Below are positions 25,705-43,306 of a stretch of 64,000 bases of DNA, piece by piece. The DNA is taken from NCBI GenBank assembly GCA_902801465.1, contig CADCIH010000008.1:4772-68771 (forward strand), in the 5' to 3' direction. Under the pieces are notes generated by a model. It saw nothing but the letters and a program-made list of their open reading frames with translations, did no database searches and had not been told where the DNA came from. Source of the stretch: an uncultured Bacteroidia bacterium (GTDB taxonomy: Bacteria; Bacteroidota; Bacteroidia; Bacteroidales; F082). Within the stretch, counting starts at the first letter, position 1; each line of letters starts with the position of its first letter. Position numbers and translations under genes: made by a program.

Positions 25705-27174
25705 TTAGCGGACCTCTTTTATTTCCACATAAGTTTGCGGAAGACCAGATAGTTTTTCCAATAGTTTTAACCTTTGGGTAATGATGCTTATATTATATCC
25801 TTGACTATTGATTTTAAATGACACCAGCCATCTTGATATAGTTTCCATATCGAACAGCTTAAAGCCAACGGTTAGTTTATCATTTTCATACAGGTACACG
25901 ACCTTTTGTTTTTTGTTTCTCAAAAAAGTGCTATATCCCACAAAGTAACACAGCAGGGTAATAGCCATTAGACAATGGAAAAGATTACTTTCTTCAGAAT
26001 TCGAAGACAACTTTTCTGGAGCTAATAATTGCTCCATTGAATCAACAAATTCTTGCAATGACAAATCAAAAGATGCAATCCTCTCGAATTCACTAGACTC
26101 ACATATTTTCAAATATGACAGAAAGAAAAACAGTTGAGGCAGTATTTCGCTATTAAACGGCATCCCACACAACCCTATTCTTGCGGTTGAAAACACCCTT
26201 TCGACCTGACGCAGACTAGGATGATTCTGCTTAACCAGGACCTTCGCCATGGTCAAGAACTCTTCTTTATCAAATTCGGCTTTGGCTTTATTCTGTCCAG
26301 AATAATCTATTCCAATTCGATATTCGTTTCTTAAGAACTCATCAAAACCATAATAATCATACAAGTATTCACAAAACTGATCAGCATTCGGTTCTGGCAA
26401 AAAATACTCAAAGTCTATAAAACGCCTTAAATACTCCTCTGCATCGATTTCATTGCTTCCATAAAAGCCTTTTACCGAGCAAGCTAGTTGTCGTTTGTCA
26501 ACAGCGAGGATGAAAACAATGTTCGGAACATCAAATAGATGCTTGATTCTTTCAAGCACTTTCACTGCAAAAGCAGGATTACAACGGTCCAATTCATCCA
26601 CCATAAAAATTAATGGTTTGCCTTTGTCACATACCTTCGTCATATAATCCTTAAGACTATCCTTAAACGAATGCATTATCTCTGCCCGGTCGTCTTCTTT
26701 TTTCAAAGAATCGTAAATTGTGGCTTCCAATTGCTTTGCTCCTCCTTCAATGGCACCTTTTGCAACCTCACCCAAGGAACCTGTTGCAGCGGTTAAAGCA
26801 CCCATCAACGCGCCCAAACAAACTTTTGCTCCCGTTTTTAACACATCGTCTAGGCCTTCCTCTTTTTGCAGTACCTTCATTCCACGAAGCATCGAAACCA
26901 AAGGCTCGTCGCTAATATCATCCTCCCAGGCGTTGTAGTAAACAACAGGGAAGTCTTGGTTTTTCAAGTGTTGCGACCACATCTTCAGAAAGGCGGTTTT
27001 ACCCGTTCCCCACGATCCGTTTAATGCGATAACTGCTCCACTAACAAATGTTTCCACAATGCCCGTTAATATCTCAGCATAGTCTTTTCTACCCAGCTTG
27101 TCATCTTTAAACGGCTGGGCGGGGTCTTCTATGACAAACTCCTTGGCTTTTGCTTTGATAAATTGTTTTTCCAT
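25705..27174 (-). CDS. KAP family P-loop NTPase
   Basis: Walker A LNGSWGTGKTAF and Walker B FMVDELDRC. Start set at MEKQFIK (27174) so it does not overlap the upstream gene. Confidence 0.8.
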   Translation of the reverse strand: MEKQFIKAKAKEFVIEDPAQPFKDDKLGRKDYAEILTGIVETFVSGAVIALNGSWGTGKTAFLKMWSQHLKNQDFPVVYYNAWEDDISDEPLVSMLRGMKVLQKEEGLDDVLKTGAKVCLGALMGALTAATGSLGEVAKGAIEGGAKQLEATIYDSLKKEDDRAEIMHSFKDSLKDYMTKVCDKGKPLIFMVDELDRCNPAFAVKVLERIKHLFDVPNIVFILAVDKRQLACSVKGFYGSNEIDAEEYLRRFIDFEYFLPEPNADQFCEYLYDYYGFDEFLRNEYRIGIDYSGQNKAKAEFDKEEFLTMAKVLVKQNHPSLRQVERVFSTARIGLCGMPFNSEILPQLFFFLSYLKICESSEFERIASFDLSLQEFVDSMEQLLAPEKLSSNSEESNLFHCLMAITLLCYFVGYSTFLRNKKQKVVYLYENDKLTVGFKLFDMETISRWLVSFKINSQGYNISIITQRLKLLEKLSGLPQTYVEIKEVR

Positions 27175-27193
27175 TTCTCGGGTAGGTGACGGT

Positions 27194-27634
27194 TTAATTA
27201 ATCGGAATAACTCCCCTATTATTTGGCTCCGTACTCCATTGCACCTGCCAACAGCGACCATCAATTTGATCAAGCAACAGGAAGTTATACATGTTTTCGG
27301 TAGGATAAAGAGTAAAACGGCAACAAATCTGATCTTTCGGGGTTAATATCCGAATGTTTAAGTCAAGGGCAGTTTCAAATCGGTATTCATTCCCCTTTAC
27401 ACTGTATTGCACTTGCCATATTTGACCAGTCATCGTGTCCAGTTTCAAAAACGTCCACATGTTTTGTGTCTTGAACAATTGATATCTCGGCTCTCTCAAT
27501 TGGTTCAGATACGCTTCCATGTATTGAAACATTTTGATGTCTCTTTCCGAAAGACCTTCTTGTTGAACTTCTTGCTTGCAACCAGTGATAAACAACAATG
27601 CTGTGAGACTGAATAGTAACAATGTTTTTCTCAT
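27194..27634 (-). CDS. Lipoprotein of unknown function (internal duplicated WQVQ[YW]S motif)
   Basis: Lipobox LLFITGC. Two repeats: GQIWQVQYS and GRCWQVQWS. Confidence 0.55.
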   Translation of the reverse strand: MRKTLLLFSLTALLFITGCKQEVQQEGLSERDIKMFQYMEAYLNQLREPRYQLFKTQNMWTFLKLDTMTGQIWQVQYSVKGNEYRFETALDLNIRILTPKDQICCRFTLYPTENMYNFLLLDQIDGRCWQVQWSTEPNNRGVIPIN

Positions 27635-27666
27635 ACCATTAAATTTATTGGGGGTAACGCCATATA

Positions 27667-28245
27667 TTAAAGGTCATCCATTGCGGAGTCAAGTACCTTT
27701 TCAGAGTTGATTTTGTCATAATATGAGAGCCGCACCATACCAGAACCAAACGAAGAACCTTCAAGCAGCGACAACTCAATATTGCCCAAATCAGTTGAAA
27801 ACACGGTGTACCATTCGTATTCTCCAGAATGCAAGGCCAACATTTTCAAATCATCACTGTCGCCCACGTACCCGGTAAACCTCTCGGAACGCATTTCTGG
27901 TCTGCCATATTTCTTTGTCAACATAGACTTAAGTTGTTCATAATCATTCAGCAGCGAAGACCATGTTTCTCTTTCGGGGAACAAAACGGCAATATGACTG
28001 ACGACATCGCAATTGCTCAAAGTAGACACACCAATAAGACAATCTTTGAAGCCAGCAAAATCACCAGACAAAACAGAAAGACCGTCTTCAGTCCCTTCAA
28101 ATTGAAAACCCGCCTTAATCATCGCGTTGGTATATTGCTTAAGAGTGCCATCAATTGGCACTCCCTTAAACGACAAATGCTCTTCCTGAGCCATCACACT
28201 GCCCATTATAATAAGGCAAACTAAAGTTGTTACTAGTTTTTTCAT
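27667..28245 (-). CDS. Secreted protein of unknown function
   Basis: Signal peptide MKKLVTTLVCLIIMGSVMAQ. 192 aa. Confidence 0.5.
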   Translation of the reverse strand: MKKLVTTLVCLIIMGSVMAQEEHLSFKGVPIDGTLKQYTNAMIKAGFQFEGTEDGLSVLSGDFAGFKDCLIGVSTLSNCDVVSHIAVLFPERETWSSLLNDYEQLKSMLTKKYGRPEMRSERFTGYVGDSDDLKMLALHSGEYEWYTVFSTDLGNIELSLLEGSSFGSGMVRLSYYDKINSEKVLDSAMDDL

Positions 28246-28284
28246 AATTGAATTATTTTATATGAGTATATCCCTATTTTACAA

Positions 28285-31200
28285 TCAGTCTATCTCGTGC
28301 CCATTGCACTCCATATCAGTGATGCACCATCCGGTGGCATAGCAATACATCGTCAGAATGATGCTGTTTGCAGCATCAATCTCTTTTTCCGTCGCCGTCG
28401 GCGATAGATGCGACTCTTCATTGCGCCACTCCTTCATGATTAGCAGCCACTGATAGAGTCGTTGCTTGGCTTCGTCCTGGCTGTATTTCAGTTGCCACAA
28501 CGGTTGAATACCGTGAATCACATTCGCCCAAGTAACATCTTCCCCTGGATTGCGCGGGGGCACTTCCTCATTGTTCATCATGTAATAAAGCTTCCTGAGA
28601 AAAGCTTCGTATTTGGTTGAAAGCAAATTATAGGCAACAAACTTGTCAACAACGCTTGCGCCTTCCTTATACAAACTATTGAAAGCACTATGGAGGAGCA
28701 TCCCTATTCCATCAAGTTTCGGAATGGTCGTGGCATCAATCACATAAAACAAGGCTGCAACAATCTGCTTCATTGGACGCATGTATTGTTTTACACCTAA
28801 CAAAGTGGTATTCGCCAAATCTTCAACCTTGGATTTGATGATGTCGATATCAACCTGTCCGCCCTGCTGTTGCTGGTTTTCAAGCTCCTTAAATCCTTCC
28901 TCCACCGAAGTCTGCTCCACCACGGCGGTCGCCATCGTGATGTCTTCGTTCAGGTAAGCCGCCAACATCTTCTCTCGCTTCTCGGCATCCAAAATGAAAT
29001 CCTTCAGATACATGGCTCCCTTGGCAATCACCATGCGCGACTTGGGTTCTTCGCCTTCCACCTTGGTGATAAACGCCTTGGTCTTCCCGTTGTCGAGGGT
29101 CAGGCGCAAATCGTTAAACCTTCCGAAGTCGTCCAGGTTCTCTTCCGTGGGGTTAGCCAGTATCAGCTGCTCCAATCCACTGATGCTCGCTCCAGTCGCC
29201 TCGGCAAACAACAACGCCTGCTTGTGCAGCTCCTTCAGCTGGTATTCGTTGATGTAGTCCTGGATGGTCTTGCCGGCCTCTGGCCTCAAATCGCCGCTCT
29301 GGATGTCGTGCAGTATCAGGATGGCGGTGCGCTGGTCTTTCTGGGGCAGCGACGCAAAGGTCTTGTGCAGCTCCCTCAGGGCTTCCTTGGTGGGCTCGCT
29401 TCCGGGACCGTCGGTATAGAGTTTCTTGATGAACCTCACAAACTTCGAGTTGATGTACTCGGCATCGATGGTGCCAGTACCTGTCTCGGTTATGTAGGTA
29501 TCCACTGGGTAGTCGAAGTCGTAGTCCGTGGGATCGCCACCTTCGCCGCCTCCAAACAGCTCGCGGTAACGCTGTAGCAGGATGAGGTAGGTGTTCTCGT
29601 CAAACTCCATCTTCACATAAGTAAAAGTATCGTCGTGCCTGAACTCATATTCGGCCTGCTCCCAAGTGAATCCTTGCAGCTTGGCAGCTTCAAGCAAACG
29701 GGTCATACTGCTGAAGTCCTTGGCAAACATGTTCTTGTCTTCCCTGGTGTCAGGCAACCTCTCAAAATTGAACAGCTCGTGCGAGAAGAAGATGTCCCTG
29801 ATGTGCAGGAACTTCCGGTTGATGTTCATCAGGTTGTCTTCAAGCTTGTCCACAAACACACCTAACGGCCTGTCCACATACACCTCCAGGGCATCGTTGA
29901 TGTTCTGCTCCATCGTGTAGGGGAACGTATAGTAATAGATGGTGCCAAACGGTTTGTCGGGACCGAACACACGGTTGGTTCTTGAGAACGATTGAATCAC
30001 GTCCACATAACGCATCACCTTGTCCACATAGAGGGTGTTCACCCATTTCGAGTCGTAGCCGGTCAGCATCTGGGTCACCACAATGAGCAGGTCTATCTGC
30101 TTCGTGTGGTCGTGGTCGATGTCCTTGTAGGGTTTCTTGTGGGCCAGTCGCTTGGCCACGTCTTTCTTGTATTGCAGGTAGTTGGGCAGTCCAAACTGGG
30201 TCTGGTACTTGCTGTTGTAGTCGTCAAGCATCTCCAGTATGGCATCCTCTCGGGCAATGCCCTCGTCGCTGTTGTCGATGTTGTTGTCAAAAACGGCCAC
30301 CACGTTCATCGATGAGTATTGCGTCTTGAACAGCTCATAGTAGGCAATGGCCTCGGGGATGTTCTTCGTGGCCAGTATCGCATGGAACTTCCTGTTTTTG
30401 CTCAGACGTTCAAACTTGCCCATGATGTCGGCAGCTACGGCCTGATGGTGGATGTCCTGCTGGTAGAGCTGCTTGGGTAGGTAGTGCTCCACGCCGTGTT
30501 TGGTCTCACCGTTCTCGGTGTAGGTGTCCACCATCTTCATCTCGTGCATGAACTGGTCATACACCTTCATGGCTTCCTCGTTGTCTTCGATCTCTTCCAG
30601 GCTGTGCACCTTCAGCTGGGCAAAGGCGGCCTTCTCTCTCAGCTCGTCATCGTCGTATGTGTTCACGCGGTACGGGTCAAAGCCCAGCACGTTACCGTCG
30701 GGAATGCCGTTGGCGATGGTGTATTTGTGGAGCATGTCGCCAAAGATGGTGGCTGTGGTGATTTCGTTGTGGGCATTCTCCTCAAACACGGGAGTTCCCG
30801 TAAAGCCGAAGAGCAGTGCCCTCGGGAAGGTGTGCTTGATGGTCATCAGCATCTCGCCGAATACCGACCGGTGGCATTCGTCAATGATGAACACCAGCCG
30901 TTTCTTTCCAATGCGCTCGATGGTCTCGGGGGTGATCAAAGCGCCCGGCACCACGTTCGACATCTTTTGGAGCGAAGTCACAATCAGTCGGTTGTCGGGG
31001 TCGTTGCTTTCCAGCTTGCTCACCAGTATCTGGGTGTTCTGGGTGTCTTGTATGGTATCGTCTTCTCCGGCAAAGCCCCGGTATTCGTCGAGCGACTGTA
31101 TGCCCAGCTCTATCCTGTCCATCAGGAACACCACTTTCTCGGCATCGTTGCTGGTGGCAATGAGCTGTGCCGACTTGAACGAGGTCATCGTCTTGCCCGA

Positions 31201-32118
31201 TCCCGTCGTGTGCCAAATGTAGCCGCCTCTATGCTCATGGTCGTCCCAGTTGGTCTTGTGGGTGATGTCGCATATCTTGCTGGTGGCGTAGTATTGGTAC
31301 GAGCGCAGCACCTTCAGGGTCTGGTCTTTGTCGTCGGCAATGGTGTAGTAGCCTATCAGCTGGTGGGCCATCGGTATGTTGAGCAGCTCGGCCACAACGC
31401 GGTTCCATTCAAAGATCTCGTTGTTGTTGAAATCGGCCCAGTGGAACTGGAACTCTTTCTGGAACCGGTCTTCACTCCCGGGGTTGGCAAAGTAAAGGGT
31501 CTTTTCGGGGGTCATGGCCACAAATATCTGCACCATGCTGAAGATGCCGCTGCTAAACACGCCTTCGTGCATGTAGCGCTTCAGCTGGAACACGGCTTGC
31601 GACACATCCACCCTGCTCCGCTTCAGCTCCACATGGATCACGGGCATACCGTTGATGAGCAACAGCACATCGCCTCTTCTATCACCGGCCAGTGGGTTGC
31701 TGGCCTTGAATCGGGGCTGGCGCACAATCTGGTAGCGGCTTTGCCCCGAGCTGATCTCAGCGGGGTCGAATATCTTCAGATACACTTCCTTGCCGTAGTT
31801 CATCGTGTCGGCAGGGTTGTCGCGCTTGATGCAAACAAACTTGCCATTGATGAACTTGTTCACCTTGTAGGGACTGCCGGCCATGTTCACCTGGTCAACA
31901 ATCTGCTGCATCTCCGTCGGGGTAAGCGGATAGTTGCCCAGCCGCTCGTTCTCGCGGTTCATGTCGTAGATGATGTTGGCCCAGTTGTCAATCAAGTCCT
32001 GCTCCGTCGGGTGGTGCATTATCTCAGTACTCCACCCGTGGTTGGGCAGCAATTCGCACAAGGCGTTCTCAAACTCCAGCTCCTTCTCAAAAGGACGAAT
32101 GTTTAATGTGTTGCTCAT
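28285..32118 (-). CDS. hsdR: Type I restriction enzyme R subunit with a C-terminal HEPN-like extension
   Basis: PD-(D/E)xK region GDVLLLINGMPVIHVELKRS. Helicase motifs HTTGSGKTMTSF, FIIDECHRS and TGTPVF. 1277 aa, with a C-terminal tail containing RNEESH (Rx4H). Confidence 0.9.
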   Translation of the reverse strand: MSNTLNIRPFEKELEFENALCELLPNHGWSTEIMHHPTEQDLIDNWANIIYDMNRENERLGNYPLTPTEMQQIVDQVNMAGSPYKVNKFINGKFVCIKRDNPADTMNYGKEVYLKIFDPAEISSGQSRYQIVRQPRFKASNPLAGDRRGDVLLLINGMPVIHVELKRSRVDVSQAVFQLKRYMHEGVFSSGIFSMVQIFVAMTPEKTLYFANPGSEDRFQKEFQFHWADFNNNEIFEWNRVVAELLNIPMAHQLIGYYTIADDKDQTLKVLRSYQYYATSKICDITHKTNWDDHEHRGGYIWHTTGSGKTMTSFKSAQLIATSNDAEKVVFLMDRIELGIQSLDEYRGFAGEDDTIQDTQNTQILVSKLESNDPDNRLIVTSLQKMSNVVPGALITPETIERIGKKRLVFIIDECHRSVFGEMLMTIKHTFPRALLFGFTGTPVFEENAHNEITTATIFGDMLHKYTIANGIPDGNVLGFDPYRVNTYDDDELREKAAFAQLKVHSLEEIEDNEEAMKVYDQFMHEMKMVDTYTENGETKHGVEHYLPKQLYQQDIHHQAVAADIMGKFERLSKNRKFHAILATKNIPEAIAYYELFKTQYSSMNVVAVFDNNIDNSDEGIAREDAILEMLDDYNSKYQTQFGLPNYLQYKKDVAKRLAHKKPYKDIDHDHTKQIDLLIVVTQMLTGYDSKWVNTLYVDKVMRYVDVIQSFSRTNRVFGPDKPFGTIYYYTFPYTMEQNINDALEVYVDRPLGVFVDKLEDNLMNINRKFLHIRDIFFSHELFNFERLPDTREDKNMFAKDFSSMTRLLEAAKLQGFTWEQAEYEFRHDDTFTYVKMEFDENTYLILLQRYRELFGGGEGGDPTDYDFDYPVDTYITETGTGTIDAEYINSKFVRFIKKLYTDGPGSEPTKEALRELHKTFASLPQKDQRTAILILHDIQSGDLRPEAGKTIQDYINEYQLKELHKQALLFAEATGASISGLEQLILANPTEENLDDFGRFNDLRLTLDNGKTKAFITKVEGEEPKSRMVIAKGAMYLKDFILDAEKREKMLAAYLNEDITMATAVVEQTSVEEGFKELENQQQQGGQVDIDIIKSKVEDLANTTLLGVKQYMRPMKQIVAALFYVIDATTIPKLDGIGMLLHSAFNSLYKEGASVVDKFVAYNLLSTKYEAFLRKLYYMMNNEEVPPRNPGEDVTWANVIHGIQPLWQLKYSQDEAKQRLYQWLLIMKEWRNEESHLSPTATEKEIDAANSIILTMYCYATGWCITDMECNGHEID

Positions 32119-32132
32119 ATTGATTGGTTGTT

Positions 32133-34115
32133 TTATGCTATGAATTGATTAAGGCAAGCCTTCTTCATTTGGTTCAGTTTCTCCAACTGCTGCGTCTCCA
32201 ATGAAATCCGCTTGTCAAGACAGGTAAAGAAAGACGCAATGCGATTACGTTCTTCTTTCTCCTTGGGAATATAGAACTGGCATTTTTCAAGTTCATCCTT
32301 ACTCAGATTTCCAATCGTTCCATTTCCACCTGACACACCAGTTACAAGAAACTCTTTATACCAACTGGCTCCCATGCAAGCATTTAAGAACTCTGCTTCG
32401 TCTGACGACACAAGATACATAAAGCCTCCAGGAACCATTTTATCATTTTCGCACGACACCAGGCAATGTTTGCCAACCAACCTTGGCGACCCATTTGCTG
32501 CTGTCACAAGAATATCTTTGTTTTTTGCCAATGGTATATTAACGCATTGGGCATCGACAAACACGTCCGAAAATGATACAGTGAACGCATCCTCATCTAT
32601 ATTAGATGAACGCAAGACACGAACGCCTCTGTCACAAACATCCTCTGGACTATAAGTAAGTCCTCGCCTAATCGTTGCTATATCACTGAATCTAATCATA
32701 ATCCATTCTCCGTTAAATCCTCTGAATCTGAGGGGGGGGGTAATTGATTGATTATCAGTGAATAACAATCTTAGACAAGATTGCTTCATCTCTTTAAGTC
32801 GCTCTAATTGTTCATGTTGAGCAGAAATCTTCGAATCAAGTTGATTGAAAAACTCCGCTATTAGTTTTTGTTCTGAAGAATCCTTTGGATGACGAATGGG
32901 CATTTGTCCAAAGATTTCATCAGATATAGACAACCTGTCAAATCTTGCACCTGTATTGCCATTGTCAAACATGAATTTATGCCATCTATTTGTTTTGAAA
33001 AAACAACTCAGATAATCTTTGTCAATGCCATCAACTTTGAAAACATAATAGAGTGGCGACATTACACCCGCATAGCCTAATTGGTTTCTATTTATTGGAC
33101 CAACAGGAGCTGCGGTAGAAATACGAGGATTATACACAAAATCATCGTTTTCAACTACATAATACCCTCTAATGTTATCGCCATTGGATATATCATGGTC
33201 AAAAAAGTCTAACTGATTGATAATTCCAAATTCAGCTGAATTAGTCAAAGTTATTCTTACTGCCAAGTCAGTATTCTTCTTCGTCACTTTCTTGCTAATT
33301 TCACTTAGTTTAGTGACAACCCAGTCATCATCAAAACCTTTAAAACGAAGAGCTGGCACACTTTCGTTTTGCAGCGGAAACATCGTTTCTAAACAAGCCG
33401 ATTTGAGTTGTTTCAACTCTTCAAACTGTTTTTGATAAACCGTCACCTGTTCGTCGAGCCTCTGCAAGAAAGATGCGATTTTTCTCTGCTCATCAATATC
33501 CTTCGGAATCATGATATAGCCAGTAAGCGCAGTTTCATCGCTGATATTCATGGTGTTTTTGGCTCCTTTGTTCACCAACGGCCTCATGTAAGCATTCAGC
33601 CGCCATGCAGGATCAAAGTAGTAGTGAATATACTCAGGAGCAACACCCTCTTTGGTGTTATATACAGCATAGAGTACGGACACTATACCGGCTTTGCCTC
33701 TATTCATTTTCACGATGCCGTATGGCTTCGCCCTAAGTGGTGATTTCGTATAAACAATCTGCCCAGGGCGCAAAATCTTATAGCCACTCACTGACTTTCC
33801 TGCATAGCTCCTGCCAAGATGCTCTATCTGATTAACCACGCCGTAGTCATCAGAAACCGACAAAACATCTTCAACGCCAAAAGCGTTGTCGATGTTTTTC
33901 TCATCCGATATTTCAAGGCAGTCGCTAAGCAACTTCTTTTCCCACGCTCCTTCAAATCCTTTGAAGCGCAGTCTTGGGGCACTCTCCCCTTCTTGCGGGA
34001 ACAGCATATGGACACAATCCTCCAAACTGCTGCAGGAGGTCTCTTCAGGCGTGGTCAGCACCAGCTCGTCCACCTGCCCGTCATCGCCTTGTAATATGAT
34101 CTCTTTCTCAGCCAT
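32133..34115 (-). CDS. hsdS: Type I R-M specificity subunit with three TRD-CR modules
   Basis: Three module starts: RLRFKGFEGAW (aa 48), ALRFKGFDDDW (aa 255) and PLRFRGFNGEW (aa 461). Three coiled-coil conserved regions: EQRKIASFLQRLDEQ..., EQKLIAEFFNQLDSK... and ERNRIASFFTCLDKR.... Confidence 0.85.
   Translation of the reverse strand: MAEKEIILQGDDGQVDELVLTTPEETSCSSLEDCVHMLFPQEGESAPRLRFKGFEGAWEKKLLSDCLEISDEKNIDNAFGVEDVLSVSDDYGVVNQIEHLGRSYAGKSVSGYKILRPGQIVYTKSPLRAKPYGIVKMNRGKAGIVSVLYAVYNTKEGVAPEYIHYYFDPAWRLNAYMRPLVNKGAKNTMNISDETALTGYIMIPKDIDEQRKIASFLQRLDEQVTVYQKQFEELKQLKSACLETMFPLQNESVPALRFKGFDDDWVVTKLSEISKKVTKKNTDLAVRITLTNSAEFGIINQLDFFDHDISNGDNIRGYYVVENDDFVYNPRISTAAPVGPINRNQLGYAGVMSPLYYVFKVDGIDKDYLSCFFKTNRWHKFMFDNGNTGARFDRLSISDEIFGQMPIRHPKDSSEQKLIAEFFNQLDSKISAQHEQLERLKEMKQSCLRLLFTDNQSITPPLRFRGFNGEWIMIRFSDIATIRRGLTYSPEDVCDRGVRVLRSSNIDEDAFTVSFSDVFVDAQCVNIPLAKNKDILVTAANGSPRLVGKHCLVSCENDKMVPGGFMYLVSSDEAEFLNACMGASWYKEFLVTGVSGGNGTIGNLSKDELEKCQFYIPKEKEERNRIASFFTCLDKRISLETQQLEKLNQMKKACLNQFIA
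32732..32740. repeat. G9/C9 homopolymer inside hsdS at the CR2/TRD3 junction
   Basis: The plus strand reads a-ggggggggg-t. On the coding strand this is ACC CCC CCC CTC (T-P-P-L, aa 458-461). Confidence 0.95.
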
Positions 34116-34127
34116 ATCTCATCCCCC

Positions 34128-36698
34128 TTATAAGTTCAGCTTACGCAAGCCTTCCAAGGCGTACTCGTCACCATTGAGGTCAGCCACCAAATCAGCCATT
34201 TGTTGCTTGGCCTCAGCCAGCTTCTTATCAAGGTCTTGGTACGAGACAGAATACTTGTGTACGAGTATCGTCACGCGGTTTTCTATCTCCCTAAGCACCT
34301 CGGTCAGTGTCCTATTGACACCTGCCACAACCGGGTCAATCCATTTCTTGTGCAGGAACATTTCCACCTCCTCGTCGGTCAGGTGCTCTATGGCCTCCTT
34401 GGTCTTGTCTATCAATTCGGCCTTGGCCTCTTTGATTTCCTTTTTCACCTTGGTTTGCTCTTCCCATAGCTTCACCAGTCTCACCAGCTTCGCCTTCGTC
34501 TCAGGCTCTATTTCGTCGCCCTTGGCCTTGGCATCCTTCTTTATCTTCGCTTTGTCCAACTTCGGGTCGTCGTCGCCGTCCAGATACTCCTGTGCCTCCT
34601 CTTCCGTGAAGCTGTCCCGCAGCTCGTCAACCTCAGTGTCTATCTCCTCATTTCGCGCTTCCTTCTCGCTTATGGCTTGCAGTTCCGCTTGGAACAAGGT
34701 TTCCTGCACCATCGGGAACGGGATGATACGGCCTTTCAATCCATCGGCCACTTCTATTTCCTCGTCACCCTTTTTCACCAGCTTATAAGCCGTCTCAACC
34801 TTTCTTGCCGCATCCATCCCTTCGGTCTGCAAAGTCTCTATATCGTTGGCAATCGTCGTCCATTCGTTGCTTAAAGCTTGGTAGGCAGCATAGCGGTCTA
34901 CCAATGGAATACCCTTATTTCTCAGGAAAATGTCATCCGCTATTTCATAGCGTTCCTTCATTTCCCTCACAGTGGCCACGTTGGTGATCAACCTACGGTG
35001 TAGTTCCTCGTCAAAGCCTTCAAACGCCTGCTCAAACTGCTGACGCAGCTTGGCAGTGTCGCGGTCGTGGGCAATAACGCTGGCCACGTCATCGGACGTA
35101 ATGGCCGAATAGGGTTTGTCCTCCGCTGGCTGGAACAACTCCACCCGCAACGAGGGCAACGCCTCCCAGTACTCCTTCAATCGGTCTATCTCGCTGTTAG
35201 GGATGCCGCCAAACATGGTAGCATAGATGTCATAAAGCTCAGGAGCCTCCGACGAATCCACATACCGAGGGATATTCAGGTTGTAATTGTTCTGTCTAAT
35301 GATATCACGGCTTACCTTGCGCGAATAGCCTGGCTCGTCGCTGCGCAGGCGCACCGTGTCGGCAATGCGCTTGATATCGCAATCACGCAGCCTGTTGTTC
35401 TTACCATCCTTCACGAAGCCCTTCGAGGCATCGATGATCAGCACATCGTCATTCTGACGGTGCTGCTTCAGTACCATGATGAGCGTAGGAATACCCGTGC
35501 CAAAGAAGATGTTGGCAGGTAAACCGATGATGCAATCAATCTGGTTTTTCTCAATCAGCCTCTTACGGATTTTGCCTTCTCCCTCATCCTCTGGGTCACC
35601 TCTGAACAATACGCCGTGAGGCAACACGATAGTCAGGATGCCGTCTGGCTTCAGGTGGTGTAGCTCATGCAGCAGGAAGGCGTAGTCTGCCTTGCTCTTC
35701 GGTGCAACACCATAGTCCTTGAAGCGGGCATCCAGTTCAGCGTCCGTGGGGTCCCAGTGCTGCGAGTAAGGCGGATTTGATACCACGGCATCCACATACA
35801 GCGGTCGCCCTGCATTGGGGCCAGTCTTTTCGATTGGCCAGTCCTCATCTAATGAGTCGGCGCAGCGCGTGTCGATGTTGCCTGGTCTGATACCACGCAT
35901 CACAAGGTTCATGCGCGTCAGGTTGTAGGTGTTTTCCTTCAGCTCCTGCGCGTAGTATTTCACGCGGTTGCGGTCTTCTATGTGACGGCCAACACTCTTA
36001 CCGATAGTGATGAGCAGCGAACCCGAACCGCTCGTGGGGTCGTAGATTTCAATCTGCTTTTTGTCCTTATGGTGCTCGGCCACGATTTCCGACATCAGCA
36101 TGGCCACCTCATGCGGAGTGTAGAACTCTCCAGCCTTCTTTCCCGCGCTTGCGGCAAAGTTGCTGATAAGATACTCGTACACATAGCCCAGCACGTCATA
36201 GTCCTGTGAGCCGTCCGTGGGAATATCCTTGATGAGCTTGATCAAGTCTTTCAAAGCCTTGGTCTGCGAAGCTGGATTTTCGCCAAGCTTGCTCAATCCG
36301 GCTTGCAGGGTGATGAAGATTTTCTCATACACATGCTTATAGTTGGGGCTAATCATGCGATCAAACGTGTTGAGCGCAACGCTCAGGTCGGCCACGTTGA
36401 ACGTGCTATGAGGCAGCAGCCATGTCGAGAAAAGGTTTTTATATTCGATGAAATAGCCGATGCTGTTTTTGCAGTCCTCAATGGTCACGGCCATATCTTC
36501 GTCGTCATAGTTTTCAACCAGGTCTGGCAAATCCTCTTCCGTCCATCCGCTCTTCTTCAGATGGGCAACCTCGTTATCCGAAAGGAACTTATAGAAGATA
36601 AGGCCAAGAATATAGTCCTTATACTCACTGGCATCAATCTTCGACCTCATCTTATTGGCCGAAGCCCAAATCCTGTTTGCTAGTTGTTGTTTGTTCAT
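34128..36698 (-). CDS. hsdM: Type I R-M N6-adenine DNA methyltransferase subunit (long form)
   Basis: HsdM_N-type N-terminus (LANRIWASANKMRSKIDASEYKDYILGLIFYKFLSD), SAM motif YDPTSGSGSLL and catalytic VVSNPPYS. The C-terminal extension of about 350 aa is coiled-coil-rich. Confidence 0.9.
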   Translation of the reverse strand: MNKQQLANRIWASANKMRSKIDASEYKDYILGLIFYKFLSDNEVAHLKKSGWTEEDLPDLVENYDDEDMAVTIEDCKNSIGYFIEYKNLFSTWLLPHSTFNVADLSVALNTFDRMISPNYKHVYEKIFITLQAGLSKLGENPASQTKALKDLIKLIKDIPTDGSQDYDVLGYVYEYLISNFAASAGKKAGEFYTPHEVAMLMSEIVAEHHKDKKQIEIYDPTSGSGSLLITIGKSVGRHIEDRNRVKYYAQELKENTYNLTRMNLVMRGIRPGNIDTRCADSLDEDWPIEKTGPNAGRPLYVDAVVSNPPYSQHWDPTDAELDARFKDYGVAPKSKADYAFLLHELHHLKPDGILTIVLPHGVLFRGDPEDEGEGKIRKRLIEKNQIDCIIGLPANIFFGTGIPTLIMVLKQHRQNDDVLIIDASKGFVKDGKNNRLRDCDIKRIADTVRLRSDEPGYSRKVSRDIIRQNNYNLNIPRYVDSSEAPELYDIYATMFGGIPNSEIDRLKEYWEALPSLRVELFQPAEDKPYSAITSDDVASVIAHDRDTAKLRQQFEQAFEGFDEELHRRLITNVATVREMKERYEIADDIFLRNKGIPLVDRYAAYQALSNEWTTIANDIETLQTEGMDAARKVETAYKLVKKGDEEIEVADGLKGRIIPFPMVQETLFQAELQAISEKEARNEEIDTEVDELRDSFTEEEAQEYLDGDDDPKLDKAKIKKDAKAKGDEIEPETKAKLVRLVKLWEEQTKVKKEIKEAKAELIDKTKEAIEHLTDEEVEMFLHKKWIDPVVAGVNRTLTEVLREIENRVTILVHKYSVSYQDLDKKLAEAKQQMADLVADLNGDEYALEGLRKLNL

Positions 36699-36724
36699 AA
36701 ATTGTATCTCGTTGTATCTTGTTG

Positions 36725-36732
36725 CAAAAATA
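36725..36732 (-). promoter_or_regulatory. -7 promoter box (TATTTTTG) in front of hsdM
   Basis: Reverse complement of caaaaata. It ends 27 nt upstream of the hsdM ATG, inside the 68-nt gap after the Hsp70-fold gene. Confidence 0.5.
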
Positions 36733-36766
36733 ATCCGTATTGGTTCAACCTTATTGAAGGTATTGT

Positions 36767-38335
36767 TTAATCGTCAGTTATTCCATGTTCATACGTCGTT
36801 GACTCTTCCAACGACACTCCCCTATATGCCTCTTCAACGATGGCAAAAAGCGTCCTGTAGGAAATCAGCGGGATTCTCCTGTCGTCACTTCCGCACAGCG
36901 CCAATCCAAGTGCGGTTGATAACATGGGGATCTTGTTTGACACTTCCAAAGCATCATCTATAGAGTAACTATTCAACAATGCAGAGCCCATATGTATTAC
37001 ATCGGTAAAGCCCATATACGGCTTGCGTAACTCAGGTATCATTGAACCGCCCCCAGTGAAAACGACAGGTCTTTTTGTGACAATATCGGTTGCTTCGCTT
37101 TGTTTGACTCCAATACTTTGTGCATGGTGTTTTATCTTCATCGAAAAGTAATCCATCCTGTTTTCAACCGCTTTGAAGTGTGCGTCTAGCCCATCTTTTT
37201 CAATGGCATTTACGCCATAGGGTATCGATACGTAGTCAAAGATCTTCACTTCATCGCCAAGTGGAGCCACAAAGATACTTATATCCGTAGTACCACCGCC
37301 AATATCCACCACAGCGTTTACTCCCGTTCCAAATCGTTTCTGCATCGCTAATGGATTAAGGTTGGCGTAGGCTTCCGGGAACACAAATATTTGGTTATCC
37401 TCTTTGGCTGTCTCAGTAAACTCTTTGATGCGAGTTACGCTCTTTAGTTCATCAAGGGTAGCCGCCAAAAACAGTTCCTTATCGTGCTCAAAAACATTCT
37501 CAATCAAGTCATACACCGTCAGGATAATCTGGGTCGCCCTCCGCTTGTTTGTATCCCAATTCTTTTGTCCGCTCGATGTGCCCATGCTGACAATAAGGTT
37601 TTGGGTTCCATATTCCGCATCCAAGTCAAAAAACACAAAACACAGATACCAGATTGACACCAACATTGGATCCAAGTCAAACCGCCATTCAAAACCATCC
37701 GAAAACACCATTTGCTTAAAACTTCTGAATGTCGCCGGAATCATTTCTTGTTCCCTATGCTCATATTCCTCCCATATCCGCATCCTGCGTTCATAATCAT
37801 TCCGAAGCCTCTCATTAAACGCATCCACTTCTTGTTTGTCCTGGGCGATATCTTTGTCCCGTTGAATGCATTTTCTTTCATACTCTGCTTTGGCTTCCTC
37901 ATATAGTTCCATCTCTATCTTGCGACGCCATGCTTCTTTCTCAAGCTGTTTTTTGTTCTCAAGTGCTTGTCTCAAATCTGAGAAGGCTGAAATCGTATTC
38001 TTCTTTTTCTTTTGATTGCCATCAGCAGGAGCTTCCGGCCTTTTAGGTTCTGGAAACTGTTTGTATTTGCGATATACCGGCATCTCCGGCCTTTCCGGTG
38101 CTTTGTCTTTTGCTACCGCCACAACCATAGCCGCATCGTCTATATCGACAAAACCATACGAAAGAGTGTTGTCTTTATTAATCTGAACTACTGACGGAAA
38201 AACAAAACCTGGATCGCCGTTCTGGTCCCGAAATCTATGGAACAAATATCTCCTATTCCTTTTGTCCGAACTATCCTCAATACATATCTTGGTATAGTGA
38301 GTTCCAAAATCCAAACCAACTTTTACAGCAGCCAT
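36767..38335 (-). CDS. Hsp70/actin-fold (ASKHA) ATPase with a large charged coiled-coil insertion
   Basis: Phosphate-1 motif VGLDFGTHYTKICI, phosphate-2 motif VVDIGGGTTDISIF and adenosine motif VFTGGGSMIPELRK. An insertion of about 110 aa is K/E/R-rich (aa ~95-205). Confidence 0.75.
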   Translation of the reverse strand: MAAVKVGLDFGTHYTKICIEDSSDKRNRRYLFHRFRDQNGDPGFVFPSVVQINKDNTLSYGFVDIDDAAMVVAVAKDKAPERPEMPVYRKYKQFPEPKRPEAPADGNQKKKKNTISAFSDLRQALENKKQLEKEAWRRKIEMELYEEAKAEYERKCIQRDKDIAQDKQEVDAFNERLRNDYERRMRIWEEYEHREQEMIPATFRSFKQMVFSDGFEWRFDLDPMLVSIWYLCFVFFDLDAEYGTQNLIVSMGTSSGQKNWDTNKRRATQIILTVYDLIENVFEHDKELFLAATLDELKSVTRIKEFTETAKEDNQIFVFPEAYANLNPLAMQKRFGTGVNAVVDIGGGTTDISIFVAPLGDEVKIFDYVSIPYGVNAIEKDGLDAHFKAVENRMDYFSMKIKHHAQSIGVKQSEATDIVTKRPVVFTGGGSMIPELRKPYMGFTDVIHMGSALLNSYSIDDALEVSNKIPMLSTALGLALCGSDDRRIPLISYRTLFAIVEEAYRGVSLEESTTYEHGITDD

Positions 38336-38336
38336 A

Positions 38337-41300
38337 TCAGATTATTTTTATCAAGTTCAACATCATTAGTTTATCGGAAACGGTTGGTTCGCTAACCGAA
38401 TCCAATTCCTGTAACCTCAGCACAAGGTCATCTTTAAGTTTTCTCAGCTGACCCCTACGGGCAGGCAACACTCTTTCAAGGTTTGCCTTCTTTTCCAACA
38501 GAGTCCCCTCGCTCCCATCTTCAAAGAAATCATATGTTGAATCACCCCTTCCTTCGCCAATTAAAATGTCACAAACCCTGATGTTGGTTTCAAACCTTTC
38601 GATGGTCTCCTCTTCATCTTTAATCTGCTTTTTATACCTCGCTTCAATTCCGTTCCGTTGATGCTCAATGTCGTTCCTTTGCTTCCTCGAAACGATTTCC
38701 TTATAATCATTTCTGTAGTCCCTTATCGAATCCGCGAAACAAGACCTCATATCATCTACAGCCTTCTCGTCGGGACGATAGACATCCTTCGAATCCCATG
38801 GCAATCCCGAAGTTTGGACGGATCTGTAAACGGCATCCACAAACTCCTGGTCTGCCACTATGTCCATTCTTCCAACATCATACAAAACGGGATGCACCTC
38901 TTGCGTTTTCCTTGATTGTCCATACCTGAATGATTCCGTGACAACATTATAAATAGCTAAAACGTAATAGCCTTTGTTTATCGCCATCCCTTCTTCAGTA
39001 TTCATATCAGAGCATTTAAGTTGATAGCGAAATACGCCAGCTTCTTTTTCAACCTGTTCTTTAATTTTTTCTTTGGCTACAATCACGAAAGGATGGTAAA
39101 TACTTAGATATGGTATGGCTCGATTGGTTTCGGCTACTTCCTGGCTAAAAGTCACCTTGAACGACGATTTGTCCCGAATGGTATTGACAAAGCCCTTGAT
39201 CATGTCACCATTTTCACCTCGGAGTGTGGTGTAGGTATTCAACAGGTTTACAATTACCTTCGGCTGGCTCTGGGGAACGGAAATTGAAACCAATCCATCT
39301 TTGTTGGCCTCACTTATGGTACACGTAGGAAGTGTCTGCTTGAAAAGCATCCTAACATAGTTCTCAAGTTCCTGTTCTGTGACGTATGCTTTATTGTTGA
39401 TGATGGCATTCAAATGGTCGCGCAAATAGGAGTCGCTGGTGAAAGTGGTTGATAACTCCCTTTCTATTTTTTTCGAATCTTCCATATTGCGTTGCAGCGC
39501 CCTGTCAATTCGCGTCAGCTTTTCTTCCCGTTCCTGCTCCGTTAGTTCTATACGATACAGGTTGCTCTCTAACTCATCGGCTATAGTGGTATTTTCATCT
39601 AGCCTTTGGCTCAAAATAGGTTCCAGGTCACCTATGGTCCTTCTAAATTCTTCTATTCTTTCCTGTAACCTGCTGTGTATCCTTTCCTGAACCGTACCTT
39701 TCACAAGCATGTTATAGATGTGGATAATCTTCGATTGTTGACCGATTCTGTCAATTCTACCGATTCGTTGTTCAACAACCATGGGATTCCATGGCAGGTC
39801 ATAGTTTACAATGGTATCGCAGAATTGCATGTCAAGACCTTCGCCACCAACCTCTGTCGATAGCAAAACCGTAACAGATTTGTCTTTCTTAAACTCGTCC
39901 ACTGCATTGATACGGCTTAACCTGTCGAGCATTTTACCGCTGATAACACGGTAACCGATTTTATTCATGGCAAACCTTGCAGCCAAATAGTTGATCGTAC
40001 TATGGAAATGGGCGAATACTATGACTTTCCCGTTACCCTTAGTCTGGTTCTCATGTATAATCCGCATCAGTGCATCATACTTGGAATCAACCAAGCCTTC
40101 ATAGTTATAGGTATCGCTATCGTTGGCATAAAGACTACTGGCTATCATCTGTTGGTGCGTGGAACTCGCTAGTGGCGACAGACCTTTAAGGTCATCCATA
40201 AACATATCAAACAGCTCTTGTTCGTCCTTGTTCAATTCAACCTTGACGGTTATCGTGTCTCGCTTCGCTTGTGAAAGATCGGTCGTAACGTCCACCTTTC
40301 GTGTTCTTGACATAATGGAACTCAACGGATTGATGTCATACAAATCGCTTTGAATCAAAGTCCTTTGTTTTGGTGTGTCCTCCCCTTTTAGTTTTTCCAT
40401 CAGAGGCTCAAACAGCGGCAATCTCCTTACATAATCATCCTCGTCAATCATATCATCCAACCCCTTCCTTATCTCCTCAAACGAAGCATTCCCGTTAAGG
40501 CTATTAAGCGCCCACACAAAAGGTTCGTTATGCCTTGACTCATCTTCAAAGACGGATTCACTATCATAGCGTTGACTGTTTAGTAGGTTGAGCAGATGAT
40601 AAAGATTCGTCCGTCCAAGCATAATGGGTGTTGCCGTAAGGAACACTGCCGACTGGGCGTGACGCAACAACCGCTCTATGGCGTCATGCTGCTTGGTATT
40701 GGCATTGCGTACCCTATGTGCCTCATCACACACTACCAAGCTGAATTGATATCCCAAGTCCTCTACCTCTTTGACCACGCTCTTTTTCTTTGTATCCCGT
40801 AACGTATCGTATGAAATAATGCCTCGGGCGTTTCCATTATGCGATCTCAATTCTTTCAATAGCTCATCTTTTTTGTCGTATATTTGAAACATCAAGCCAA
40901 ACCTATCCTCAAGTTCCCCTTGCCATTTGTTTCTTAATCCTCCAGGGCAAACCACCAATACATTCTTCAGCTCATTCCTGGCTTTCAACTCAAGCATGAT
41001 ATGGCCGGCCTCAATGGTTTTACCCAAACCCACTTCATCAGCGATAAGCAGCCTCTGAAGGTCCGAGTTTAAGAACTTCATTAATGGGATGTACTGGTAG
41101 GTCTTGAACATCGTCCTCGATGCCTTAATGGACGACAATGTGTTATTGCTCGAGTTCTCAATCTTAAATGTCGTGTTGAACACCTGAAAGTCGTTGTACC
41201 CCTTAAAATCCCCAAGAACACATCGATCGAATAAATCTTTCACTTCGACAAACCGTTCCAGGTCTCTTTCCGTTACATCTCTGATATCCTCTTGACCAAA

Positions 41301-41411
41301 AAAAACACTATATTTTTGATCGCCTCTTACATGAGGCAATACCTTGACAACTGTTCCTCTTTGGTTGGTATTGATGTCGGTTACAACATCACCTATATTA
41401 AACTCGGCCAT
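38337..41411 (-). CDS. SNF2-family helicase, RapA/HepA-like, with an SH3/Tudor-like N-terminus and an uncharacterised C-terminal domain of about 420 aa
   Basis: Motif I ADEVGLGKTIEAG, II LVVCDEAHRVRN, III FLTATPI, and V/VI LLSTEVGGEGLDMQ...NYDLPWNPMVVEQRIGRIDRIGQ. The N-terminus reads FNIGDVVTD...RGTVVKVL. Confidence 0.85.
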   Translation of the reverse strand: MAEFNIGDVVTDINTNQRGTVVKVLPHVRGDQKYSVFFGQEDIRDVTERDLERFVEVKDLFDRCVLGDFKGYNDFQVFNTTFKIENSSNNTLSSIKASRTMFKTYQYIPLMKFLNSDLQRLLIADEVGLGKTIEAGHIMLELKARNELKNVLVVCPGGLRNKWQGELEDRFGLMFQIYDKKDELLKELRSHNGNARGIISYDTLRDTKKKSVVKEVEDLGYQFSLVVCDEAHRVRNANTKQHDAIERLLRHAQSAVFLTATPIMLGRTNLYHLLNLLNSQRYDSESVFEDESRHNEPFVWALNSLNGNASFEEIRKGLDDMIDEDDYVRRLPLFEPLMEKLKGEDTPKQRTLIQSDLYDINPLSSIMSRTRKVDVTTDLSQAKRDTITVKVELNKDEQELFDMFMDDLKGLSPLASSTHQQMIASSLYANDSDTYNYEGLVDSKYDALMRIIHENQTKGNGKVIVFAHFHSTINYLAARFAMNKIGYRVISGKMLDRLSRINAVDEFKKDKSVTVLLSTEVGGEGLDMQFCDTIVNYDLPWNPMVVEQRIGRIDRIGQQSKIIHIYNMLVKGTVQERIHSRLQERIEEFRRTIGDLEPILSQRLDENTTIADELESNLYRIELTEQEREEKLTRIDRALQRNMEDSKKIERELSTTFTSDSYLRDHLNAIINNKAYVTEQELENYVRMLFKQTLPTCTISEANKDGLVSISVPQSQPKVIVNLLNTYTTLRGENGDMIKGFVNTIRDKSSFKVTFSQEVAETNRAIPYLSIYHPFVIVAKEKIKEQVEKEAGVFRYQLKCSDMNTEEGMAINKGYYVLAIYNVVTESFRYGQSRKTQEVHPVLYDVGRMDIVADQEFVDAVYRSVQTSGLPWDSKDVYRPDEKAVDDMRSCFADSIRDYRNDYKEIVSRKQRNDIEHQRNGIEARYKKQIKDEEETIERFETNIRVCDILIGEGRGDSTYDFFEDGSEGTLLEKKANLERVLPARRGQLRKLKDDLVLRLQELDSVSEPTVSDKLMMLNLIKII

Positions 41412-41471
41412 AATCTTTTCAGTTCTTATTCATTTGCAAATAAACAACAAACAGGTTCAGTCATATTAAAC

Positions 41472-42479
41472 CTATTTTCCATACAAATCAAAAGCTTTGG
41501 TTAAACGTTCTTTTATTCTGTCTTGAAGCTCTTGTGGTTCAAGCACCATAATACCTTCACCGTACGACAGCAACTGTTGCTGCAACTCGAAGTTCAAATA
41601 AACCTCAATGGTGATGATGGCACCGCTGTCGTCAACGCTAAGCACATGCTGTGACCCATGGAGAGGTTTGGTCATGATGTAAGGCCATGTTTCGGGCGAT
41701 ACCCACAGCTTTATAAGCCGGGGTTCTTTCCTGGAGTCTTTGGACACACCGATCATTTCATCGAAATAATCAAAGAAATCAACATCAGTAGGACGATATG
41801 GCTCAGAAGAGTCATCGATGGCAACAATGCGGTCGAAAGCATAGTTGGCCATAAAGTCAGCCTCGGCATTCCAGGCAATCAGGAACCAACGCTTGTTGTA
41901 CTGCTTAAGGTAATAGGGATGAACCGTGATGGTCCTTTGTTCGCTATGCCCAAAACCTTTATAGGTCAGGCGAAGAGCCCGCTTGTCAATAATGGCATTG
42001 AAAAGTGGCGTAAAGTGTTCCATTCCCTTCAGATCAAGATTCTCGTCGAATCCCACCACCTCCTCCGTCGGCACCTCATCAATCTTCAGCGATGCGCCCA
42101 ACCTATCGGCAATCTCAGTAATCCAATCGAATTGCGGCATCCCACGAAAACGCTTCAGTAGGCTAAGGGTTTGTATGAGTTGTACCGTTTCATCGGGTTT
42201 CAGCAGCGACCTATAGATGGAAAAATCAGGGTCGGCGTAATGGTAATAAATATTCCTCCCCTCACGGTAATGCTCAACCGCCGCTCCCGGATAAATCCGC
42301 TCAATCTGCTCGATATCGTTGCGGATGGTATTCATTGCAGTGATGGGCTGAAAGTCTCTCCTCTCAAGCTCTCGGTTGCACAATTCGAACATCTCCGCCG
42401 TAGAGTAATCGCGGTTGCGGTCGCTCAAGCAGCGGTCAATGACCTTGATGCGCAAATCGGAACTTTTGGAATTAGGCAT
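41472..42479 (-). CDS. HTH plus WYL-domain transcriptional regulator (BrxR/CapW-like architecture)
   Basis: N-terminal wHTH-like region. WYL region TITVHPYYLKQYNKRWFLIAW. C-terminal extension domain. Confidence 0.8.
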   Translation of the reverse strand: MPNSKSSDLRIKVIDRCLSDRNRDYSTAEMFELCNRELERRDFQPITAMNTIRNDIEQIERIYPGAAVEHYREGRNIYYHYADPDFSIYRSLLKPDETVQLIQTLSLLKRFRGMPQFDWITEIADRLGASLKIDEVPTEEVVGFDENLDLKGMEHFTPLFNAIIDKRALRLTYKGFGHSEQRTITVHPYYLKQYNKRWFLIAWNAEADFMANYAFDRIVAIDDSSEPYRPTDVDFFDYFDEMIGVSKDSRKEPRLIKLWVSPETWPYIMTKPLHGSQHVLSVDDSGAIITIEVYLNFELQQQLLSYGEGIMVLEPQELQDRIKERLTKAFDLYGK

Positions 42480-42538
42480 AGAAGCCTCCTTCCGTGAGGT
42501 AAAAATGGTTCATTTGTATCTAGGCTTTAAACAGCCTT

Positions 42539-42546
42539 CAAAGGTA
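42539..42546 (-). promoter_or_regulatory. -7 promoter box (TACCTTTG) upstream of the WYL gene
   Basis: Reverse complement of caaaggta, about 60 nt upstream of the ATG at 42479. Confidence 0.45.
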
Positions 42547-42709
42547 CAAATAATCCCCCGAAAATCCCACATTTTTTTGAAACCTCGGTTCAGGTGAGGT
42601 TGTTGCTATATTGAAAATGTTATTTATTTTATAACAAATTAATATGTAATAAACAATATCTTTGAAAAGTTTTGATTAACTTTGCAGGTGAAATTATAAT
42701 AATTAAACC

Positions 42710-43111: not shown

Positions 43112-43306
43112 ACATCTCAGGCCATTTCGGCGGTCTGCCTGAGATTAGTGCTTGGAGCCATAGGAGTTTTCCAATGCTGCAAAAATACAAAAAAAAACAT
43201 TCACTACAATATTTTCATTAAAAATCAATAAAACAAAGCATGGAATAAAAAAGTTTTATATCTTTGCAGCGTCATTTGGAGGAATTCGCAGAAAGGACGA
43301 CAACCT

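Follow-up and report, generated by a model that had tools for sequence, protein, structure and literature searches.

"Extended" hsdS genes, which encode a Type I specificity subunit with three target recognition domains (TRDs), are described by Atack et al. (FASEB J 2020, PMC7383803), with a G[n] tract in Mannheimia haemolytica and an AAGAC[n] repeat in Fusobacterium nucleatum; in M. haemolytica the two-TRD form directs methylation to CAACN4GT and the three-TRD form to CAACN5TC. In the NgoAV system of Neisseria gonorrhoeae (hsdS1/hsdS2) a one-base change in a poly-G tract, six to nine residues long across strains (6-9), fuses or separates two open reading frames (ORFs) and alters the specificity (GCAN8TGC versus GCAN7STCA, PMC9577141). 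Three TRDs are likewise present in the S subunit JHP1422 (M.Hpy99XV) of Helicobacter pylori J99, for which experiments demonstrated a dual specificity via different TRD pairs and in which TRD3 is active alone, presumably as a homodimer (Krebes et al., NAR 2014, PMC3936762). Inversion-driven hsdS shufflons are known from Bacteroides fragilis, by which Bacteroidales phase-vary Type I systems (PMC7641763), and from Streptococcus pneumoniae (SpnD39III, PMC4948785). Here we analyse a stretch of 64,000 nucleotides (the window) from an uncultured member of the Bacteroidales (assembly GCA_902801465.1, contig CADCIH010000008.1), in which the hsdS gene of a Type I restriction-modification (R-M) operon (32133..34115, minus strand) encodes three TRD modules in a single frame of 660 aa and carries a run of nine cytosines between the second and the third module. 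We regard it as likely that this C9 run is a hypermutable tract which acts as a heritable slip switch of an extended, three-module hsdS.

The tract is located at 32732..32740 and reads as G9 on the plus strand (GAGGGGGGGGGTAA) and as C9 on the coding minus strand, where an initial annotation of the window, made from the sequence alone, had placed it and proposed a phase switch between a three-TRD and a canonical two-TRD subunit. Its codons ACC CCC CCC CTC specify T458-P-P-L461 of the hsdS translation, also in agreement with that annotation. Translation of the slipped states reproduced both predicted products exactly: C8 results in a two-TRD protein of 472 aa ending in ...TPPSDSEDLTENGL, and C10 in a two-TRD protein of 467 aa ending in ...TPPPQIQRI. 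The respective stop codons on the minus strand are TGA at 32696..32698 for the -1 state (C8 or C11) and TAA at 32713..32715 for the +1 state (C10 or C7), and both alternative frames end 9-14 codons past the tract. Three TRDs in one frame are encoded at C6, C9 and C12, two TRDs at other lengths. Only the first methionine downstream in the module 3 frame had to be corrected, as it is M473 (32697..32699) and not M472, and stands 12 rather than 11 codons after L461. The claim that no comparable homopolymer occurs in coding regions of the window holds, as C9 is the sole coding G/C run longer than six, and the only other such run is an intergenic C8 (10138..10145).

The length of this tract differs among relatives. 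Protein homologues were retrieved by a search of a collection of 5.8 billion proteins, while DNA of relatives was obtained by four routes, i.e., the contigs encoding these homologues, a scan of GTDB genomes, a pattern scan of JGI metagenomes, and the HsdR of the strain itself; the GTDB scan, performed with alignment A1 (17 three-TRD homologues), contributed five loci, all from metagenome-assembled genomes (MAGs) and too few for a species-level census. With the homologous tract recognised by its flanks (GATAATCAATCAATTA[Cn]TCAGATTCA), we found C7, C8, C9, C10 or C11 across 16 independent metagenomic loci. C9 is present in the window and in L004, L005, L013 and L015, C8 in L001, L002, L008, L009 and L010, C10 in L014 and L016, C7 in L003, and C11 in L011. 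An invariant tract across strains had been named in the initial annotation as the observation that would speak against a switch, and this invariance is not what the relatives display. The most informative loci are L013 (C9) and L014 (C10), which stem from different metagenome records and differ in a single mismatch over 7,718 aligned nucleotides, with the tract as the sole indel. L008 (C8) is 98.8-99% identical to both of them over 600 nt on either side of the tract. One allele is thus present in all three frames.

The same pattern is visible at the protein level. Many homologues are three-TRD proteins of 640-673 aa which read through the tract, and many others, of 450-476 aa, stop exactly at it. 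Among the latter, P0002 (474 aa) matches the window HsdS at 99% identity where covered (70% of the query) and ends in ...TPPSDSEDLTEIGQER, P0003 and P0019 have the C-termini ...TPPSDSRDL..., and P0023 terminates in ...TPPQIQGI; a read-through example, P0005 (659 aa), has one proline fewer. Natural examples of the -1 state are P0002, P0003 and the loci L001, L002 and L008, and of the +1 state P0023 and the loci L003, L014 and L016. The third module is retained regardless of frame. Wherever a slipped locus possesses a third module (8/8), the frame of this module is open over 177-203 codons and ends in the C-terminus …KKACLNQFIA of the third conserved region (CR3), which argues against decay. A proline or glycine run occupies the junction between the second and third modules (junction 2) in 17/17 aligned three-TRD homologues. 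Tract length sets the frame, all three frames exist in natural populations in almost the same sequence context, and module 3 is conserved throughout. Together with the position of the tract and the slipped products, these observations support the phase-switch interpretation of the initial annotation.

The architecture of the subunit is consistent with the position of the tract as a gate for the third module. HsdS displays three Methylase_S stretches (Pfam), of which the best comprises residues 470-649. In an AlphaFold2 (AF2) model of the 660-aa form, three TRD-like alpha/beta domains are each followed by a helix of 39 residues (207-245, 413-451 and 620-658); the model has a pLDDT of 72 and a pTM of 0.47, with module 3 poorly modelled. 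Its best fold matches in the PDB (Foldseek) are the HsdS structures 1yf2, 2y7c and 7vs4, and model and matches together confirm the HsdS fold. All parts lie on the minus strand. An N-terminal extension of ~46 aa (MAEKEIILQGDDGQVDELVLTT...LFPQEGE, 33978..34115), conserved in the family according to the columns of alignment A1, precedes the TRD of module 1 (residues ~47-206, 33498..33977) and the CR1 helix (207-245, 33381..33497), which are followed by the TRD of module 2 (residues ~254-412, 32880..33356) and the CR2 helix (413-451, 32763..32879), with boundaries taken from the predicted secondary structure. The TRD of module 3 (residues ~461-619, 32259..32735, from Methylase_S and AF2) and the CR3 helix (620-658, 32142..32258), which ends in the family-conserved ...KKACLNQFIA, complete the protein. 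The three TRDs are mutually distinct (19-31% identity): TRD1 is 30.6% identical to TRD2 and 18.7% to TRD3, and TRD2 and TRD3 share 20.7%.

The tract itself is part of a short linker that leads from the end of helix 2 (…SCLRLLFTDNQSITPP) to LRFRGFNGEW of TRD3, a motif which opens every TRD in this hsdS family. The end of CR2 (CLRLLF) corresponds to the usual C-terminal region of a two-TRD HsdS, and the canonical homologue P0107 (409 aa) ends directly past the equivalent helix (…ACLDKMFV); the slipped products are therefore complete two-TRD subunits and not fragments. Only the slipped states have the two TRDs of a canonical subunit, while the C9 frame has three. Two-TRD profiles of PADLOC fit modules 1+2 and modules 2+3 equally well. 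The initial annotation's three-TRD assignment and its placement of the tract at the junction of modules 2 and 3 are confirmed by the Methylase_S stretches, the translation and the slipped products. At junction 1, the window hsdS reads ESVPALRF and lacks a homopolymer.

A sister clade (L006, L007, L020-L030) possesses two such tracts, a poly-G of G6-G11 at junction 2 (CR2/TRD3) and a poly-C of C6-C9 at junction 1 (CR1/TRD2). L024, L026 and L028, which originate from three different assemblies, have no mismatches over ~6.45 kb, and their differences are confined to both tracts. All four possible ORF patterns are present in this clade: a three-TRD gene, 1+2, 2+1, and 1+1+1. In the poly-G clade, an ATG is fused to the tract (AATGGGGGG); in the +1 state it shares the frame of a complete module 3, for which P0145 (MGGYFSSIRF…) is an example. 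In the loci of the sister clade, hsdM and hsdS are moreover separated by a DUF1016/YhcG gene.

If the tract acts as proposed, slipped-strand mispairing during replication would add or remove a C. At lengths of 6, 9 and 12 the three modules would remain one chain of 660 aa; at other lengths an early stop would leave modules 1 and 2 as a complete, canonical HsdS with two TRDs (467 or 472 aa). Each TRD reads one half-site, so that the bipartite target of the HsdM2-HsdS methyltransferase, and of the restriction complex with HsdR, would differ between the two protein forms, and the lineage would flip reversibly between specificities of methylation and restriction. Because of the precedents in M. 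haemolytica and H. pylori JHP1422, we infer by analogy that the specificity changes between the two- and three-TRD forms.

Several points weigh against a switch in this strain. The window, L018 (operon 100% identical, from the Logan assembly of run ERR3201403) and L019 (99.98%) all have C9, which is also what a stable three-TRD gene would display, with C9 merely encoding Thr-Pro-Pro-Leu and length differences elsewhere due to rare frameshifts or assembly errors. L018 and L019 were located through their identical HsdR and possibly derive from the same reads as the window, i.e., they are not independent; an exact look-up of the 660-aa HsdS, which was not exhaustive, returned no record even though L018 encodes the identical protein. 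Consensus assemblies are blind to heterogeneity within a population, and homopolymers are prone to sequencing errors. Some loci that resemble long-read assemblies carry generic homopolymer noise, and L023, L027 and L030 were discounted because they have indels in other short homopolymers, too. At least one G/C 9-mer was found in 26/100 dinucleotide-preserving shuffles of the window, by which the 9-mer taken alone is not significant and the bare statistic unremarkable. ACC and CCC are moreover the preferred Thr and Pro codons across the genes of the window, and the run has a chance of ~4% given TPPL. The AF2 model is silent on which TRDs or helices pair. Mismatch repair is presumably present in Bacteroidales and would lower the rate of switching. 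However, the hsdS gene (GC content 41.6%) avoids CCC outside the tract (2/23 Pro codons), and the tract stays uninterrupted at the same junction in diverged relatives. As the sole coding G/C run above six, contrary to the codon usage of its gene and conserved in this way, the tract is non-trivial. A stable gene is also difficult to reconcile with five lengths at one site in 16 loci with identical or nearly identical flanks, with tracts as the sole indels in clean near-clonal sets (L013/L014; L024/L026/L028), with the intact third module in 8/8 slipped loci, and with the presence of either poly-G or poly-C at the same junction in different clades. We therefore consider a stable gene quite improbable.

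Alternatively, one genotype could produce both proteins, either by slippage of the RNA polymerase or by +1 slippage of tRNA-Pro on CCC-C, and such slippage may accompany changes of the DNA. The tRNA-Pro could re-pair perfectly on the run in all three frames, stops are close downstream in both alternative frames, and enterobacteria are known to frameshift by +1 at CCC-C. Transcriptional slippage, on the other hand, is documented mainly for A/T runs, and the differences in tract length are fixed in the DNA consensus of relatives, by which a change at the DNA level is certain. As the explanation of the two forms, slippage during expression is unlikely, but it could add leakiness to the switch. 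The two-TRD forms could also be decaying pseudogenes, i.e., dead ends derived from an ancestral three-TRD fusion (or the reverse). Frameshifted copies are indeed common, and NgoAV carries additional inactivating mutations in many strains (PMC9577141). In contrast, the truncated product here is a complete canonical HsdS, stop codons are absent from module 3 in all eight slipped loci, and nearly identical sequences are found in the +1 as well as in the -1 state, which leaves decay with a very small probability. The same holds for a variation of specificity by recombination or inversion of hsdS cassettes, for which B. fragilis and S. pneumoniae provide examples, with the homopolymer as an incidental feature. 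Within the family, TRDs have clearly been exchanged between positions and between alleles, L001 shares modules 1-2 (97.7%) with the window allele but differs from it in module 3, and Bacteroidales are known to phase-vary Type I systems by inversion (PMC7641763). Yet there is no second hsdS and no recombinase among the ORFs of 26000..43000, where the inverted repeats comprise three weak pairs only, none of them meaningful, and the exchange resembles slow recombination between strains rather than a switch at the locus; such an origin of the variation is hardly to be expected. A slip switch at the DNA level consequently remains our preferred interpretation of the C9 tract.

Some relatives provide additional insight into the dynamics of the hsdS modules. 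L001 is 97.7% identical to the window allele (L018) at the nucleotide level through the end of hsdM and modules 1 and 2, and changes to a different module 3 just past the conserved LRFxxFNGxW motif. TRD types occupy different positions in different alleles across the family, and as judged from these sequences the pattern indicates cassette exchange via the conserved junctions. In L012 (569..) and L017, hsdS ends right at the poly-C (C10 and C8, respectively) and is followed by unrelated genes (a secreted protein and FtsY), without module 3 and without hsdR. Either a deletion ended at the tract in these contigs, or the homopolymer gave rise to a chimeric assembly. In the HsdS P0117 (835 aa), a two-TRD unit is repeated exactly in tandem, which results in four TRDs; the duplication may be genuine or due to the assembly. 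L009 (JAFYHY010000039.1) is a contig of 1.5 kb with an hsdS of Bacteroidales type that is binned in a MAG of 'Aeriscardovia' (Actinobacteria), probably a binning error.

The fate of the third module in the slipped states deserves separate consideration. The ATG of M473 (32697..32699, minus strand) is the first start codon of the module 3 frame in any slipped state and could give rise to a half-HsdS of 188 aa; gene callers place an ORF of 164-190 aa at this position in slipped relatives. In the C8 state, the TGA stop (32696..32698) overlaps this start as ATGA. The same overlap is found in L001, where another module 3 follows; in L002, stop and start overlap as TAATG. ATGA is a classical geometry of termination and reinitiation which favours translational coupling, although we regard its role here as speculative. 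Coupling in the C8 state would yield a separate module 3 half-subunit of 188 aa and keep ribosomes on the mRNA before hsdR. No start codon for module 3 is found upstream of M473 in the slipped states, and none before L461. A product started at M473 would thus lack the LRFRGFNGEWI segment, and this loss weighs against a separate subunit of this kind, as does, for a coupled module 3, the C10 state, in which the stop is located 13 nt before the ATG of M473.

With these reservations, the junction homopolymers might constitute a combinatorial switch of hsdS with several states rather than two, a tentative suggestion which we consider possible but doubtful. In the window, C9 would then correspond to the three-TRD fusion, C8 to a two-TRD HsdS with a coupled module 3 half-subunit, and C10 to the two-TRD HsdS alone, while in the sister clade the independent poly-C and poly-G tracts would split the gene into one, two or three pieces. 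If so, a single hsdS locus would specify several sets of methyltransferase specificities, and simple-sequence phase variation would be added to the DNA inversions for which this order is otherwise known.

The hsdS gene is the second in a compact minus-strand operon with the order hsdM-hsdS-hsdR. The first gene, hsdM (856 aa, 34128..36698), has its stop codon 12 nt before hsdS, and hsdR (1277 aa, 28285..32118) starts 14 nt past the hsdS stop. HsdM matches the Pfam domains N6_Mtase (PF02384, 8.4e-99) and HsdM_N (PF12161), and scores 328.7 bits against TIGR00497 (cutoff 242.75). HsdR matches HSDR_N (PF04313), SWI2_SNF2 (PF18766) and T1R_D3-like (PF22679), and scores 319.1 bits against TIGR00348 (cutoff 284.55). 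Both proteins pass the curated NCBIfam cutoffs, by which the locus qualifies on sequence grounds as a Type I R-M operon. A scan of the operon for consensus promoters and terminators, which does not cover the promoters of Bacteroidales, returned nothing interpretable. Both enzymes have long C-terminal extensions without a Pfam match, in HsdM at residues ~490-856 (34131..35231) and in HsdR at residues ~900-1277 (28285..29421); the latter includes R-N-E-E-S-H (residues 1232-1237, 28408..28425), a candidate Rx4H HEPN-like motif.

The operon is situated in an apparent defence island (25705..27273, 36767..38335, 38337..41411 and 41472..42479). This island includes a KAP-family NTPase matching PADLOC PDC-S20 (4.6e-127) and a DrmD-like SNF2 helicase (4.9e-113, under the NCBIfam DrmD cutoff), with a WYL/WCX regulator ahead of the helicase and, after it, a protein of 522 aa that has faint actin-fold (FtsA/MreB) matches only. 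The pair of helicase and 522-aa protein matched no complete known system. Elsewhere in the window, the intergenic region 10110..10220 accommodates, besides the C8 run (10138..10145), an A9 run (10183..10191) and several G5/C5 runs (GGGGGTATAGGGGGAAATTAGCCCCCCCC ... CACCCCCACCCCCTACACCC); a scan with Rfam and for tRNAs returned no match in this G/C-rich homopolymer region. Another A9 run is located at 43189..43197.

To our knowledge, Type I phase variation in Bacteroidales has so far been described through inversions. The mechanism discussed here is already known from the extended hsdS class and no new principle. New are its host group, uncultured Bacteroidales from animal-gut, rumen and gut metagenomes, and the metagenomic record of all frame states, of alleles with two tracts in a sister clade, and of stop/start overlaps. 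If the switch operates, a lineage of gut or rumen Bacteroidales would flip the specificity of its Type I methylation and restriction by the slip of a single base, with a changed exclusion of phages and plasmids and possibly an epigenetic regulation of genes (a phasevarion). The extended hsdS class would be widened from two pathogens to abundant uncultured commensals, and natural ON and OFF alleles suited to a comparison of methylomes are already present in public metagenomes. For annotation, hsdS genes of this family that appear 'split' at a poly-C or poly-G junction would then have to be regarded as switch states and not as pseudogenes or assembly errors.

The poly-G switch of hsdS in NgoAV, reportedly described by Adamczyk-Poplawska and colleagues in 2011, was the precedent given in the initial annotation. 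It remains valid in so far as a homopolymer switches an hsdS gene, and in both systems the homopolymer is located in a linker past a conserved helix. NgoAV is nevertheless not the closest match, because it toggles between a dimerising half-subunit with one TRD and a subunit with two, whereas the window gene would alternate between two TRDs and three, and its truncated form consequently needs no dimerisation. The NgoAV tract lies between TRD1 and TRD2, while the tract of the window follows TRD2-CR2; a tract at junction 1 (C6-C9) exists in some relatives (L006, L007, L020-L030) but not in the window. JHP1422 resembles the window protein in that a single S chain comprises three TRDs with helical connectors on their flanks. 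However, TRD2 and TRD3 of JHP1422 are identical duplicates, with a palindromic and a non-palindromic site, and no repeat at the junction is described, in contrast with the three distinct TRDs here (20.7% identity for TRD2 versus TRD3, 18.7% for TRD1 versus TRD3) and the homopolymer that gates the third. By analogy, JHP1422 may serve as the best available model for the 660-aa form and for a free module 3. With the B. fragilis and S. pneumoniae shufflons the window locus would have in common that a lineage switches its Type I specificity stochastically, but there the switching is brought about by site-specific inversion between hsdS copies, and the window locus is without inverted repeats, silent cassettes and a recombinase.

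The closest likeness is to the extended hsdS class (PMC7383803), in the description of which the main text makes no mention of Bacteroidetes. In both, an in-frame repeat places three TRDs (1, 2a and 2b in the known genes) into one ORF, the repeat is positioned between TRDs 2a and 2b or, here, between TRD2 and TRD3, and lengths out of frame leave a full two-TRD HsdS with the third TRD annotated as a separate S2. The tract of M. haemolytica is likewise a G/C mononucleotide run, and multiple allelic TRDs are found at each position. Repeat length differs among conserved copies in the relatives, while the three assemblies of the window strain have C9. The differences concern the host, an uncultured gut or rumen Bacteroidales instead of Pasteurellaceae or Fusobacteria, the shorter tract, which is in frame at C9 compared to G12, the relatives with two-tract alleles, one tract per TRD junction, and the ATGA stop/start overlap in the -1 state. 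Judged by its sequence, the window hsdS has every structural feature by which the extended class is described there, and the likeness is one of architecture and mechanism.

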